Assembly: GCA_046536775.1 (NCBI GenBank)
Contig: JAWDMD010000021.1
Coordinates: 1-7,560 of the forward strand
Length of the DNA stretch: 7,560 nucleotides
Origin: Candidatus Nanopusillus sp.
GTDB taxonomy: Archaea; Nanobdellota; Nanobdellia; Nanobdellales; Nanobdellaceae
Reading direction: 5' to 3'
Shown: positions 5 to 6,577 of the stretch, piece after piece
Layout: each line of letters starts with the position of its first letter
Numbering within the stretch: position 1 is the first letter of the stretch
Notes under the pieces: generated by a model
What the model saw: the letters and a program-made list of their open reading frames with translations, nothing else
Told to the model about the DNA's origin: nothing
Database searches by the model: none
Translations under genes and position numbers: made by a program

Positions 5-105
5 TGCCGCCGCGGGGATTTGAACCCCGGACCTCCTGGTTTCTCACAAACTCATCGATTTTATAGGTTATGAGCCAGGCGCTCCAACCCCTGAGCTACG
101 GCGGC
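5..105 (-). tRNA. tRNA-Met(CAT), elongator type, interrupted by a 28-nt intron at the canonical 37/38 position
   Basis: Reverse complement of 5..105 reads GCCGCCG-TA-GCTC-AGGGGTTG-GAGC-G-CCTGG-CTCATA[28-nt intron]A-CCAGG-AGGTC-CGGGG-TTCAAAT-CCCCG-CGGCGGC-A. This gives a 7-bp all-Watson-Crick acceptor stem, a 4-bp D stem, a 5-bp anticodon stem and a 5-bp T stem with a TTCAAAT loop. The anticodon is CAT, the spliced length is 73 nt, and CCA is not encoded. G1:C72 argues against an initiator tRNA. A CAU anticodon could also belong to the agmatidine-modified tRNA-Ile2, which sequence alone cannot exclude. Confidence 0.9.
41..68 (-). other. tRNA intron, a bulge-helix-bulge type substrate for the archaeal splicing endonuclease
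   Basis: The intron RNA is ACCUAUAAAAUCGAUGAGUUUGUGAGAA. Intron nt 23-26 (UGAG) pair with C32-A35 (CUCA) to form a 4-bp helix. That helix is flanked by two 3-nt bulges, U36-A37-A(i1) and A(i27)-A(i28)-A38, each containing a splice junction. The anticodon stem forms the outer helix. The inner helix is weak (only C(i2):G(i22)). The exact junction is ambiguous by a few nt because AACC is repeated at both borders. Confidence 0.75.
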
Positions 106-2527: not shown

Positions 2528-3139
2528 ATGGGTATAAGCATATTCTATATATTGATTGTAATATTTGATATACTACTATCTATATGGAATGCATATAACG
2601 CAGGAAGATCTTTGGAATATATGAAATTAAATAACATTGAAAGTGATTGGCCAAGAATGGTTGCATATTCTACATTAATATTATCCTTTGCAGGTGCAGC
2701 ATATAGTAATACATCATTATTATCAATTGCCGCATATTATTTAGGATATATTGATATATATACATTATTAGGAGTTCTTTCATTTTCATTTTTAGTATTC
2801 GGATTTTTAATAATATTGTTTGGAATTGTTGTAACTATTAATAGTATAATTGTCGCATCAAAAACAAGAAGGTTCTTTGATATAGCTATTGCAGTATATA
2901 ATAGTATTGCTGTTATTTGGGATATATATAGTTATATAGAAGGATTTTCTACAGCATTTAGTATATTAAGAAACCAGTTTGGTAATGAAGAAAGAAATTC
3001 TCAAGGGGCATTTATTTTAATAATAATTGCTGCAGTATTGATTGCAGTATTTATGGTATATGGAGCATTTAAATACGGTAAAGCTTCTGTATATAAGGTA
3101 GAAAAAATGTCTATGCAACCATCTCCAATTGAAGGTTAA
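2528..3139 (+). CDS. Uncharacterised integral membrane protein (about 5-6 TM segments)
   Basis: 203-aa ORF dominated by hydrophobic stretches (ISIFYILIVIFDILLSIW, MVAYSTLILSFAGAAY, LLGVLSFSFLVFGFLIILFGIVVTI, FFDIAIAVYNSIAVIW, AFILIIIAAVLIAVFMVYGAF). No family recognised. Its stop TAA overlaps the next ATG (TAATG at 3137..3141). Confidence 0.65.
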   Translation: MGISIFYILIVIFDILLSIWNAYNAGRSLEYMKLNNIESDWPRMVAYSTLILSFAGAAYSNTSLLSIAAYYLGYIDIYTLLGVLSFSFLVFGFLIILFGIVVTINSIIVASKTRRFFDIAIAVYNSIAVIWDIYSYIEGFSTAFSILRNQFGNEERNSQGAFILIIIAAVLIAVFMVYGAFKYGKASVYKVEKMSMQPSPIEG

Positions 3140-3699: not shown

Positions 3700-5074
3700 G
3701 ATTTTCTTGTCTTAAATTTATTTTTAATTTTTTAATAAATTCTTCATAATTATTTATATCCAATAAAAAACCTCCAAAATTATCGAAACTAGAATAATAA
3801 ATTAGATTATTGTCAAATAATTTTTTCAATATATTGTTTATTAATTTTTTATTTTCATCTTTATTTGTCCTAATTATTCCTCTATAAAAATTATTTACTT
3901 TATATAGTAAAACGATAACTTTTCCATCTATTATATTCTCTTTAATTAAAAGGTTTAATAATAGAGATAAGAAATATCCGTTTCCATAATTTTTCTCAAT
4001 TGTTATTATTTTCAATCCGTTTTCATCTTTTATTTGTATATTATTATTTATTATATCATATAATAATTTTGAAAATTGTAATCTTAGATTATTTTCAGAT
4101 TTTCTCAAAATATCGACATTATATTTTTTAATGAAATATAATATACCATCTCTTTTATTATTCTCAATTAATCCTTCAATATCATATAATAATTCTAATA
4201 AATCCCCAATCTCTTCACTTTTATTAATCTTATATATCTCCCCTATTAGATCATCTGTTCTTTGTAAATTATATTTTAATTTTGATTTTATTATACTACT
4301 AACTAGTTTTTTAATATCTTCTTCAGATAAATCTCTATAAAATATACCTGCAACCCCCTCATCTTTTATATTTAATTCTTTTACTAATTCCAAAGCCTTT
4401 TCATCACTTCCAGTAATGTTTGGGATATAAAAATTAAATGGGGAACTTAATACCTTATATAAAGGTTTTGTAAATATACTTGGAAGATTTATTCCAGTAT
4501 ATTTTGATAATATTTCTCTATCAACTAATTCATTTAATATTTCATTATTTGGTTTATTAAAATCATATAAATTTCCGACTAATGATAAATATAGAATATT
4601 TTTATCATATGGATTTAGGCTTTGATATAAGTAATATAGAACATTTGATGTAGATATATCTTTATAACCATCTAAATTAAAAATATTTGGGTTAAGATTC
4701 ACAACATTATTTAATTCAATATCTTTTATTGTTAAAAAATGATGATCTATTACATATATCTTTTTATTTAAATCTTTAGCCAATTTTATTAAATCATCTG
4801 AAAATATAGATCCAATATCTAAGAATATTATATTATCGTATTCATATCCACTTTCGCCCAAAAATAAATTATTAATTTCTTTTTTACCTATATAATCTAA
4901 AAATGTTAGATGAACCTCAGAATTTTTTTCATATAAATATTTTAATAAAAATATTGAAGAAGATAGACCATCAGGATTTAGTGAAGATATAATCAAAAAA
5001 TTTTGTTTATTTTCTACTGCCTTATTTATTCTATTAGATATCTCTTCTATATAAGATAAAAACCTATTGTTCAT
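3692..5074 (-). CDS. RecJ/Cdc45 (GAN)-like DHH-family protein with degenerate motif I and DHHA1 motif
   Basis: 460-aa ORF. It has SSLNPDGLSS (aa 30-39) where DHH motif I (DxDG or PDGD) is expected, so only one of the two Asp residues is retained. Motif II FLDIG (aa 84-88) and motif III VIDHH (aa 108-112, encoded at 4739..4747) are intact. Near the C-terminus, FDNFGGFLL stands in place of the GGGH motif. Its start codon overlaps the uS15 stop (ATGA at 5071..5074). Confidence 0.8.
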   Translation of the reverse strand: MNNRFLSYIEEISNRINKAVENKQNFLIISSLNPDGLSSSIFLLKYLYEKNSEVHLTFLDYIGKKEINNLFLGESGYEYDNIIFLDIGSIFSDDLIKLAKDLNKKIYVIDHHFLTIKDIELNNVVNLNPNIFNLDGYKDISTSNVLYYLYQSLNPYDKNILYLSLVGNLYDFNKPNNEILNELVDREILSKYTGINLPSIFTKPLYKVLSSPFNFYIPNITGSDEKALELVKELNIKDEGVAGIFYRDLSEEDIKKLVSSIIKSKLKYNLQRTDDLIGEIYKINKSEEIGDLLELLYDIEGLIENNKRDGILYFIKKYNVDILRKSENNLRLQFSKLLYDIINNNIQIKDENGLKIITIEKNYGNGYFLSLLLNLLIKENIIDGKVIVLLYKVNNFYRGIIRTNKDENKKLINNILKKLFDNNLIYYSSFDNFGGFLLDINNYEEFIKKLKINLRQENLI

Positions 5075-5494: not shown

Positions 5495-6001
5495 TTATCT
5501 TTCGTATGTACCTATAAAATACCCATATCCAACAATATTTTCTTCTCTTGCATATCTAATAAAATCTTCAAAGAACCATCCATCTATATATAATTCTTTG
5601 TTTAGAAATAATACTATTGTATAATATCTATGTTTACCATGGCCCTTTGGAGGACATGGACCATCATATCCAATTTTTCCAAAGTCATTTTTACCCTGAA
5701 TAATTTGTACGTCATCTATTTTAACAATTCTTTCTTTTTTAATTCCTAGAGATATATTTTTTACTGGTTTATTTATATATGCAATCCAGTGTTTAAATAT
5801 ACCACCCGGTGCATCAGGATCTTCTACAAATAATAACATGCTTTTTGCATCATTTGGTATTTCTTCAATCACTATTGGAAATGATATATTTTTTCCTTCG
5901 CATGTATAGTCTTTTGGTATTTTTTCCAAATCTCTAAAGGAACTTGAATATATATTTACTTTTATTGCATTATCGGGTATTTTTATATCTAATATTTCCA
6001 T
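5495..6001 (-). CDS. PEBP (YbhB/YbcL, Raf-kinase-inhibitor-like) family protein
   Basis: 168-aa ORF with the two family signatures, VEDPDAPGG and GYDGPCPPKGHGKHRYYTIVLF. Confidence 0.9.
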   Translation of the reverse strand: MEILDIKIPDNAIKVNIYSSSFRDLEKIPKDYTCEGKNISFPIVIEEIPNDAKSMLLFVEDPDAPGGIFKHWIAYINKPVKNISLGIKKERIVKIDDVQIIQGKNDFGKIGYDGPCPPKGHGKHRYYTIVLFLNKELYIDGWFFEDFIRYAREENIVGYGYFIGTYER

Positions 6002-6005
6002 AAAA

Positions 6006-6018
6006 TATATTTATTTAA
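6006..6018 (+). promoter_or_regulatory. Candidate TATA region for the C/D box sRNA
   Basis: TATATTTATTTAA contains TATATTTA (centre 6009.5) and TTATTTAA (centre 6014.5). These would place a transcription start at about 6036-6041, at or just before the C box. Confidence 0.3.
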
Positions 6019-6022
6019 AAAT

Positions 6023-6040: not shown

Positions 6041-6088
6041 ATGATGAAAATCTAAAATCTGAAAAATGATGAATTGTCGGTCTACTGA
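6041..6088 (+). ncRNA. Box C/D sRNA (2'-O-methylation guide), minimal extent from C box to D box
   Basis: C box AUGAUGA (6041..6047); 11-nt guide AAAUCUAAAAU; D' box CUGA (6059..6062); 3-nt spacer AAA; C' box AUGAUGA (6066..6072); 12-nt guide AUUGUCGGUCUA; D box CUGA (6085..6088). All four boxes match consensus perfectly, and the spacer lengths and 48-nt size are typical of archaeal sRNAs. The element is intergenic, and the opposite strand has no such boxes. True ends may extend a few nt. There is no obvious terminal stem. Confidence 0.82.
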
Positions 6089-6096
6089 TTTATAAA
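6089..6096 (+). promoter_or_regulatory. Candidate TATA box for archease (leaderless)
   Basis: TTTATAAA lies immediately after the sRNA D box. Its centre (6092.5) is 26.5 nt from the ATG at 6119. Confidence 0.4.
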
Positions 6097-6118
6097 ATTA
6101 TTTAAAAATATTTCTAAT

Positions 6119-6577
6119 ATGACTGTTTTGAGAGAATATGAATATGAGGATCATACTGCAGATATAAAGATTGTTGGTTATGGAAATACCCCAAAAAGGG
6201 CTATTGAGGCATTAATATTGGGAATGTTTAATATTATATATGATAATGAAAAAGTTGAAAAAAAGGAAACAAAACAATTTGTAATTGAGGGAAAAAATAT
6301 ATTAGAAATTATATATAATGTTGCTAGGATATGTTTAGAGGATATTTTTTATAAAGATAAGTTTGCTTTAAGGGATATAAGAGTAAAAAACCTAAAAAAA
6401 GTTAGAGTTGAAAGCAAGAAATATAAATGGGTATGTAGATTTGAAGTTTATGGAGAAAAATATGATAAGGAAAAACATGGATTTAAGAAGGAAGTTAAAG
6501 CAGTTACTTTACATGATATAAATATTACAAAAATAATGAAAACCTATTGGAGTACAGAAATTGTTGTTGATGTCTAA
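6119..6577 (+). CDS. Archease (activator of the RtcB tRNA-splicing ligase)
   Basis: 152-aa ORF with the N-terminal YEYEDHTADIKIVGYG (conserved ..HTAD(I/V)....G), the KAVTLHDINI motif (KA(V/I)T(Y/L)H) and the C-terminal IVVDV. Size is typical of archaease family proteins. Confidence 0.9.
   Translation: MTVLREYEYEDHTADIKIVGYGNTPKRAIEALILGMFNIIYDNEKVEKKETKQFVIEGKNILEIIYNVARICLEDIFYKDKFALRDIRVKNLKKVRVESKKYKWVCRFEVYGEKYDKEKHGFKKEVKAVTLHDINITKIMKTYWSTEIVVDV

Follow-up and report, generated by a model that had tools for sequence, protein, structure and literature searches.

The window analysed here, i.e. the whole stretch of 7,560 nucleotides (nt), contains a gap of 117 nt between a PEBP gene (5495-6001, minus strand, PF01161) and an archease gene (6119-6577, plus strand, PF01951). 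Inside this gap, at 6041-6088 on the plus strand, lies a 48-nt element which, read as RNA, has the form AUGAUGA-N11-CUGA-N3-AUGAUGA-N12-CUGA and is the subject of this work. Its terminal boxes C and D, and its internal boxes D' and C' with a short spacer between them, are those of an archaeal box C/D small RNA (sRNA). Since its boxes and guide core are conserved among relatives whose flanking sequences cannot be aligned, and since the C/D proteins are encoded in a cultured relative, we conclude with good confidence that it is a genuine box C/D sRNA gene, belonging to a hot-spring nanoarchaeon from the Nanopusillaceae/Nanobdella clade. The element and the two stretches next to it are composed as follows.

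6041-6088, plus strand: core of the probable box C/D sRNA gene, 48 nt with box C and box D as its ends, supported by its sequence, its unique motif and its orthologues
6041-6047, plus strand: box C, ATGATGA (AUGAUGA); A/GUGAUGA is kept at the 5' end of the sRNA in all relatives of the window clade
6048-6058, plus strand: D' guide of 11 nt, AAATCTAAAAT (as RNA AAAUCUAAAAU), not conserved and probably decayed
6059-6062, plus strand: box D', CTGA (CUGA), from the sequence
6063-6065, plus strand: D'-C' spacer, AAA, the spacer of the kink-loop (K-loop); AAA or UAAA across the window clade
6066-6072, plus strand: box C', ATGATGA (AUGAUGA), an almost invariant block of columns in the nine-lineage alignment
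6073-6084, plus strand: D guide of 12 nt, ATTGTCGGTCTA (as RNA AUUGUCGGUCUA), conserved, with G6080 as its N+5 nucleotide
6085-6088, plus strand: box D, CTGA (CUGA); CUGA in eight of nine lineages and CAGA in one
6010-6022, plus strand: A/T tract TTTATTTAAAAAT, TATA-like and some 20-30 nt ahead of box C, from sequence only
6089-6118, plus strand: spacer of 30 nt from box D to the archease ATG, which starts with the TATA-like TTTATAAAA centred about 26 nt before the ATG

Architecture of the element and its surroundings

All 22 box nucleotides of the window element are at consensus, and its spacing of 11/3/12 is of the archaeal type. The guides are 11 and 12 nt long in the window and 10-13 nt in relatives, where about 12 nt (10-13) is expected of C/D sRNAs. 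Under the N+5 pairing rule guide nucleotide G6080 faces a C of its target and A6054 faces a U. The flanks of the element cannot pair to form a terminal stem, and the fold of the region is not significant (z = -1.6). Re-reading of the sequence is therefore in agreement with the original prediction, which had described a near-perfect box C/D layout with archaeal spacing and no terminal stem, had made the same two N+5 assignments and had judged the motif very unlikely to arise by chance even in AT-rich DNA. As to the last point, the composite C/D'/C'/D motif occurs once in the window, both strands considered, even when boxes and spacing are relaxed. At the GC content of the window (23.8%) about 7e-8 strict and 7e-7 relaxed motifs are expected per window, and the relaxed form appeared in none of 3000 first-order Markov simulations. 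The heptamer ATGATGA is found six times on the plus strand of the window. A second RTGATGA...CTGA match, at 4739 on the plus strand, was ruled out as an sRNA for want of internal boxes, and no composite C/D motif outside the present family was found in the approximately 260 kb of nanoarchaeal DNA scanned.

A check against the Rfam C/D models, which the original prediction had proposed, gave a divided result. At gathering score no C/D family matches the element and the window yields only two tRNAs, while at permissive thresholds the gap region matches almost solely C/D families, many of them archaeal. The best of these is sR5 (RF01304) with 27.4 bits (E = 9e-5), against a gathering threshold of 40 for this family, so the element stays below membership of a curated family. 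In the alignments to sR5, sR3 (RF01133) and snoPyro_CD (RF00095), boxes and spacing of the window element extend over the full length of the models; the likeness ends there, as only the boxes align and not the guides, and all scores are under the gathering thresholds.

The tract TTTATTTAAAAAT is possibly the sRNA's own promoter; its distance would suit an archaeal TATA box, and transcription would begin near the first A of box C. In Nanoarchaeum equitans, a TTTAAA box precedes the start site by about 26 nt where an sRNA has a promoter of its own (PMC3491384). The spacing of TTTATAAAA would fit a leaderless archease mRNA, and read-through from the sRNA into archease is also possible, box D being followed by just a short T run. 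TATA-like tracts are however not diagnostic in DNA as AT-rich as this (about 20% GC).

The archease protein of the window is present on 17 short contigs of the JGI, ENA and Logan assemblies. Its identity to the archease of related organisms is 88% for a Nanopusillaceae metagenome-assembled genome (MAG), 86% for the complete genome AP031373 ('Nanoarchaeota archaeon'), 74% for Nanobdella aerobiophila and 59% for Candidatus Nanopusillus sp. These closest named homologues place the window in the Nanobdella-like clade. Near the start of the window (5-105, minus strand) a tRNA-Met(CAU) gene is interrupted by a 30-nt intron behind its anticodon; Rfam and ARAGORN in intron mode detected this gene, and the default tRNA scan missed it. 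There is not enough room in the intron for a C/D sRNA, which sets it apart from the tRNA-Met intron of N. equitans.

Conservation and module order among relatives

Archease neighbourhoods of the relatives were compared, and nine lineages, the window included, carry the element. The same box-guide-box arrangement stands upstream of archease down to 55% archease identity. In eight lineages the sRNA is located 30-40 nt upstream of archease on the same strand, even where the gene further upstream is a different one. At locus L015 (labels of this form denote our loci) the sRNA lies elsewhere and does not adjoin archease, and L013 has the archease gene without an sRNA. The elements of the relatives read as follows.

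L007 (AP031373): AUGAUGA GAUAAAAAAU CUGA AAA AUGAUGA AAUGUCGGUCUA CUGA
L011 (MAG GCA_049974095): D' guide GAAAAAUAAUU, D guide AUUGUCGGUCUU
L009 (N. aerobiophila): D' guide AAGAAUUAUGU, D guide UCUGUUCGGUCUC
L012 (metagenome lineage), 4918-4967: GUGAUGA ACUGCUUGGUCUU CUGA UUA GUGAUGA ACUGAACUGCCU CUGA
L014 (metagenome lineage), 409-456: AUGAUGA ACUGCCAGUCUC CUGA UAA AUGAUGA UAAAAAUCUUG CUGA
L147 (metagenome lineage), 404-451: AUGAUGA ACUGCCAGUCUU CAGA UAA GUGAAGA AAAAUUUAUAA CUGA
L015: AUGAUGA ACUGCCAGUCUU CUGA AGA GUGAUGA UAGGAAUUCA CUGA
L148 (metagenome lineage), 2702-2778, plus strand, three tandem modules: AUGAAGA ACUGUCGGUCUC CUGA GGG AUGAUGA GAACUGCCUCGA CAGA UAA AUGAAGA AACGAACUGCCA CUGA

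The constant part of the locus is a half-unit of the form 'box - guide ..UG..GUCU. - box', which has a mean column identity of 87% over the nine lineages, whereas the flanking intergenic DNA allows no alignment between clades. This is the reverse of the pattern, boxes lost and flanks kept, that the original prediction had named as speaking against an sRNA. In the window clade the conserved half-unit is the second module (C'-D) and is preceded by an AU-rich module, while the other lineages all have it in first place (C-D'), with a variable partner behind it; MAFFT aligned the C'-guide-D part of the window onto the C-guide-D' part of L012 and L014. These differences in the number and order of modules suggest that half-units have been duplicated, lost or circularly permuted within a single syntenic locus.

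The D' guide varies between the relatives, each of which has a different one (GAAUCUAAAAU, GAUAAAAAAU, GAAAAAUAAUU, AAGAAUUAUGU). Its first nucleotide, position 6048, is A in the window, and the six other metagenome contigs with an identical archease all have G there, so that this population-level variation lies within the non-conserved guide.

The D guide varies in quite another manner. Among its nine variants, counted from the box, positions 2-5 (UCUG read 3' to 5'), 9 (G) and 10 (U) are invariant and position 1 varies freely, and the changes seen at positions 6, 7 and 8 are restricted to G/A, C/U and U/C, respectively. All internal changes are thus transitions, and at each of these three positions both alternatives can pair, through G:U wobble, with a single target base, namely U, G and G in that order. 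Variation that is restricted to transitions and compatible with wobble is the mark of a guide selected to pair with a target that is itself conserved. The target core predicted from it would be about 5'-RGRYUGGYR-3', methylated at its first Y, with AGACUGGCA (methylated at its first C) as the simplest form. Alternatively, the target may co-vary and be in every lineage the exact complement of that lineage's own guide, which is UAGACCGACAAU for the window. Candidate target sequences include 5'-AGACUGGCAGU-3' and the exact complement UAGACCGACAAU.

Search for a target of the conserved guide

Nanoarchaeal 16S sequences were gathered with a primer-derived pattern from PMC4935971, and a Nanopusillus-type contig carrying both 23S and 16S (L142) was found by a metagenome scan. 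The archaeosine transglycosylase gene, which is syntenic beside 16S, was then used to reach the rRNAs of genomes that bear the sRNA. Two same-genome pairs were obtained in this way: AP031373 (rRNAs on L144, sRNA on L007) and GCA_049974095 (rRNAs on L145, sRNA on L011). The same-genome tests cover 16S, 23S and RNase P RNA within about 40 kb read per genome.

Partner guides at the same locus served as positive controls. The D guide of L012, ACUGAACUGCCU (4942-4967), pairs with AGGCAGUUCGGU of 23S, a helix of the peptidyl-transferase centre (PTC), by 11 Watson-Crick pairs and one G:U in 12 positions, which none of 200 shuffled guides equalled; the target is at 2647-2661 of the large subunit (LSU) rRNA of L144. 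By alignment, the N+5 sites of this guide and of guide 3 of L148 correspond to E. coli A2602, and guide 2 of L148 (modules 2728-2778), which pairs with GCGAGGCAGUUC, has its N+5 site at E. coli G2599. The D guide of L015, UAGGAAUUCA, pairs with UGAAUUCCUG (LSU 2195-2204) by nine Watson-Crick pairs and one G:U in ten positions, equalled by 3 of 200 shuffled guides. Partner guides of L012, L015 and L148 thus have on 23S the complementarity expected of a C/D guide, at least 9-10 base pairs (bp) with a Watson-Crick pair at N+5, and their near-perfect pairing indicates that the target test is sensitive.

The conserved guide gave a different result, and several observations weigh against its working as an ordinary guide. 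The L007 D guide, AAUGUCGGUCUA, reaches at best 7/12 on the 16S, 23S and RNase P RNA of its own genome, a score equalled by 173 of 200 shuffled guides, and the L011 D guide, AUUGUCGGUCUU, reaches 9.0 on its own RNAs with six G:U pairs, equalled by 85 of 200. Duplex energies of the D guides are at chance level too. The guides of L009 and L012 are 13 nt long, and with this extra nucleotide a single fixed target would need a bulge. No target of the conserved guide was found in any of the RNAs searched. Against the relatives' RNAs the window D guide itself scored at best 7.0, which 189 to 197 of 200 shuffled guides equalled. Under normal rules of pairing, neither 16S, 23S nor RNase P RNA hence offers the conserved guide an ordinary target. 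The D' guides show rRNA complementarity at chance level in the RNAs of the two relatives.

A local search of both strands of about 260 kb of nanoarchaeal loci, the rRNA flanks included, returned the sRNA's own antisense as the sole match. Neither tRNA of the window, tRNA-Thr(CGU) or tRNA-Met(CAU), matches the guide, as had been noted from the sequence before, and the few tRNAs in the relatives' loci (Thr, Met, Glu) do not match it either; three rRNA loci contain no tRNA genes.

Several individual sites were considered as targets and rejected. The guide of L014 matches E. coli 16S 1154-1165 at 11 of 12 positions, which pointed to helix 39/40 (E. coli C1158); the 16S of Nanopusillus and of AP031373 reads GGGACUGCCAGG/GGG there and gives a central mismatch, and a metagenome scan for the exact window target beside the downstream anchor of helix 39/40 found nothing. 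The match to E. coli arises because ACUGCCAGU is nearly palindromic. In h17/h18 of 16S (N. acidilobi 453-465, UAGAAUAAGCAGU) the sequence resembles all predicted targets but has a mismatch at N+5; the GAAUAAG of this region is conserved across all archaeal 16S recovered. A 23S site near H69 (AGGACCGGUAAA, E. coli C1894) offers 10-11 contiguous pairs to the window-type guides, yet this is at chance level and is incompatible with the guides of L009 and L014. With the 23S PTC sequences UAGACCGUCG and GAGACCUCGAUG the match is limited to 6-7 nt. A model of the anticodon loop, in which the guide would direct 2'-O-methylation of C32 (Cm32) in a tRNA with a GRY anticodon, fits the 12-nt guides and not the 13-nt guides. 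Apart from these complementary sites, a sense segment of 16S, ACUACCAGUCUA (L144, minus strand, about 9062-9073; position about 606-617), resembles the guide itself and is identical to AAUGUCGGUCUA / ACUGCCAGUCUC at 8-10 of 12 positions. This likeness was judged to be at chance level, since a match of equal score also occurs in a protein gene.

The rRNA loci recovered for this search have some features of their own. The 16S and 23S genes do not form one operon but lie about 6 kb apart on opposite strands (L144:8457-18842, L145:8458-18845, L142:1415-11783), with tgtA, an open reading frame of 165 amino acids, the gene of ribosomal protein uS19 and three type-II/IV-secretion-like genes between them, and this split arrangement is kept from Nanopusillus-type contigs to the clade of the window. 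Nanoarchaeal 16S reads UUGCACUCACC and not ACACACC. The decoding-site region of the 16S at L018:2034-3527 (position about 1362-1380) reads UUGCACUCACCGCCCGUC, with U in place of A in the assumed archaeal pattern UUGCACACACC, and three other full-length Nanopusillus/Nanobsidianus 16S (L019, L020, L022) read as L018 does. In AP031373 the gene next to prolyl-tRNA synthetase (L144:20646-20880, minus strand) encodes an archaeal RNase P RNA (Rfam RF00373, 85.5 bits), and a homologous stretch of 86% identity is present at the same place in GCA_049974095 (L145:20650-20884, minus strand). This contrasts with N. equitans, for which absence of RNase P has been reported (PMC3491384).

Interpretation and comparison with known sRNAs

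The original identification as a box C/D sRNA is well supported by the canonical architecture, the conservation over nine lineages, the sub-threshold matches to Rfam C/D families, the C/D proteins of a cultured relative and the unpaired ends, which are like those of N. equitans sRNAs. The genome of Nanopusillus acidilobi encodes Nop56, fibrillarin and L7Ae, its proteome contains all three proteins, and orthologues of each are present in Nst1 (PMC4935971 supplement). Fibrillarin (NEQ125) and NOP56 (NEQ342) are known from N. equitans as well (PMC3491384). What had been supposed of the two guides fared unequally. The suspicion that the D' guide is an orphan is confirmed, as it is neither conserved among close relatives nor complementary to rRNA, while the D guide, on which no such suspicion had fallen, is the strongly conserved one and yet finds no above-chance complement when two relatives are searched for it in their own 16S, 23S and RNase P RNA.

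On the established model of the C/D ribonucleoprotein, L7Ae would attach to the RNA, which would be about 50 nt long, at two places, the C/D kink-turn (K-turn) and the C'/D' K-loop. Nop5 and fibrillarin would then be recruited, and the 12-nt D guide AUUGUCGGUCUA would direct 2'-O-methylation to whichever target nucleotide pairs with G6080. The C'-D guide-D half, which is conserved across the family, would be the functional unit. The C-D' guide-D' half, with an AU-rich guide that has probably decayed, probably serves as just a second platform for protein binding. The motif, its conservation, the way in which the guide varies and the lack of an rRNA complement are observed; from these we infer expression, assembly with the proteins, methylation and the kind of target. 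The target is most likely a tRNA or other non-ribosomal RNA, because one conserved guide beside one target-less guide is the pattern of tRNA-directed sRNAs (PMC7994747).

A ribosomal target in 23S is conceivable but unlikely. The conserved guide would in this case act on 5'-GGGCUGGCGG-3' (GGGCUGGCGG; AP031373 LSU 2474-2483) and methylate C2477, in the column of E. coli U2423, with heavy use of G:U wobble; AT mutation pressure would have turned C of the guide into U wherever a G of the target tolerates it. This is the only conserved rRNA site which matches the wobble core RGRYUGGYR from the nine guide variants, it is the same in all three 23S sequences recovered, and for the guides of L014, L015 and L147 it gives the best duplex in 16S and 23S (-17.6 kcal/mol, 10 bp, seven of them Watson-Crick). 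Opposite the invariant Gs of guide positions 5 and 9 the site has Cs, and target position 11 is G, as the majority C of the guides predicts. The site was however found with a pattern derived from the guides themselves, for which about 0.5 chance matches are expected in 4.4 kb and two were found; the other, in 16S, is not conserved. Its energy is reached by 7 to 15 of 60 shuffled guides, and the ten pairs that the window-type guide forms on it are four G-C and six G:U, with an energy at chance level (about -12 kcal/mol). The guides of L009 and L012 need a bulge on this site, position 12 is left unpaired, and no predicted site of the 26 N. equitans guides lies in its neighbourhood.

A bolder proposal, which we consider a long shot, takes the conserved GGUCU guide beside archease to modify or bind an RNA other than rRNA and outside the canonical positions of tRNAs, e.g. 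a pre-tRNA or splicing substrate of the archease-RtcB ligation pathway, an mRNA or a small RNA. The locus would then be an evolving array of interchangeable half-units gained, lost and permuted around a constant guide.

It is very improbable that the element is kept for a role other than guiding, either as an L7Ae-binding K-turn/K-loop in the 5' region of archease, affecting its transcription, processing or translation, or as an RNA chaperone. The adjacency to archease in eight lineages, despite the differing upstream gene, and the lack of an rRNA target for either guide would suit such a role. Binding of L7Ae to K-turns of mRNAs has been proposed to regulate archaeal translation (PMC5539422), and there are sRNA families with two orphan guides (PMC6009581). 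A purely protein-binding role leaves unexplained the selection on the guide, with its invariant UG and GUCU and its transitions-only variation, and the partner modules of relatives at the same locus are clearly rRNA guides. The separation of the sRNA from archease in L015 and the sRNA-less archease of L013 speak against it as well, and archaeal sRNA genes are often found near protein genes just to borrow their promoters (PMC7994747). A chance motif or a dead sRNA pseudogene, for which one could cite the 24% GC of the DNA, the six ATGATGA on the plus strand, the missing target and the missing Rfam match at gathering score, is effectively refuted by conservation, since perfect boxes are kept across lineages with 55-60% archease identity next to unalignable intergenic DNA, and the expectation per window is only about 7e-8.

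The box C/D sRNA with a single functional guide, as preferred here, would by itself be one further sRNA in a phylum already rich in them, and in this respect carries small weight. Its value is that of a clean case, in which a guide is under clear purifying selection in nine lineages and has no rRNA target, while neighbouring partner guides have one. The lineages include cultured or completely sequenced organisms (Nanobdella aerobiophila, AP019769.1, and AP031373), and genomes of 0.6-0.8 Mb make exhaustive target search and methylation mapping practical. Such mapping could reveal what a conserved 'orphan' archaeal guide does. The differences in module order and number at one syntenic locus provide a concrete example of the rearrangement of C/D genes.

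Among known systems, the sRNAs of N. equitans, of the same phylum, are the nearest. This organism expresses 26 abundant C/D sRNAs whose ends are not base-paired (Randau 2012, PMC3491384), and 'putative snoRNAs' are mentioned in the Nst1 genome paper (PMC3655853). The N. equitans sRNAs are compact (52-60 nt), have C/D'/C'/D boxes, guides of about 12 nt and unpaired termini, and often either adjoin a protein gene or have a TTTAAA promoter to themselves; sRNA14, sRNA20 and sRNA24 are among those likewise without a predicted target. They differ in that the window guide is present in none of the 26, compared by eye, in that most of their guides target 16S or 23S, as neither window guide does, and in the frequent use of the box variants AUGAAGA or CAGA, where all boxes of the window are perfect consensus.

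The tRNA-targeting sRNAs of Pyrococcus and Haloferax, which direct 2'-O-methylation of C34 (Cm34) in tRNA-Met and tRNA-Trp, combine one functional with one target-less guide, as would be the case here (PMC7994747). The window guide matched no tRNA among those of the window and the few in the loci.

In Pyrobaculum 28% of guides are orphans, and families with two orphan guides are known (PMC6009581). Its sR43, from the orphan/permuted set sR43, sR50 and sR108, has conserved guides without rRNA or tRNA target, which resembles the D guide of the window (Lui et al. 2018, PMC6009581). Its sR57 is a circular permutation of sR56, and guide replacement has been described, reminiscent of the swapped and expanded modules at the archease locus (PMC6009581). 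With orphan guides and circular permutation documented there, these features of the window family are not new in kind. Pyrobaculum belongs to another phylum and its sRNAs have no sequence relationship to this family; its rearrangements took place between paralogous families, whereas those described here are between orthologues at one syntenic locus and include an array of three modules.

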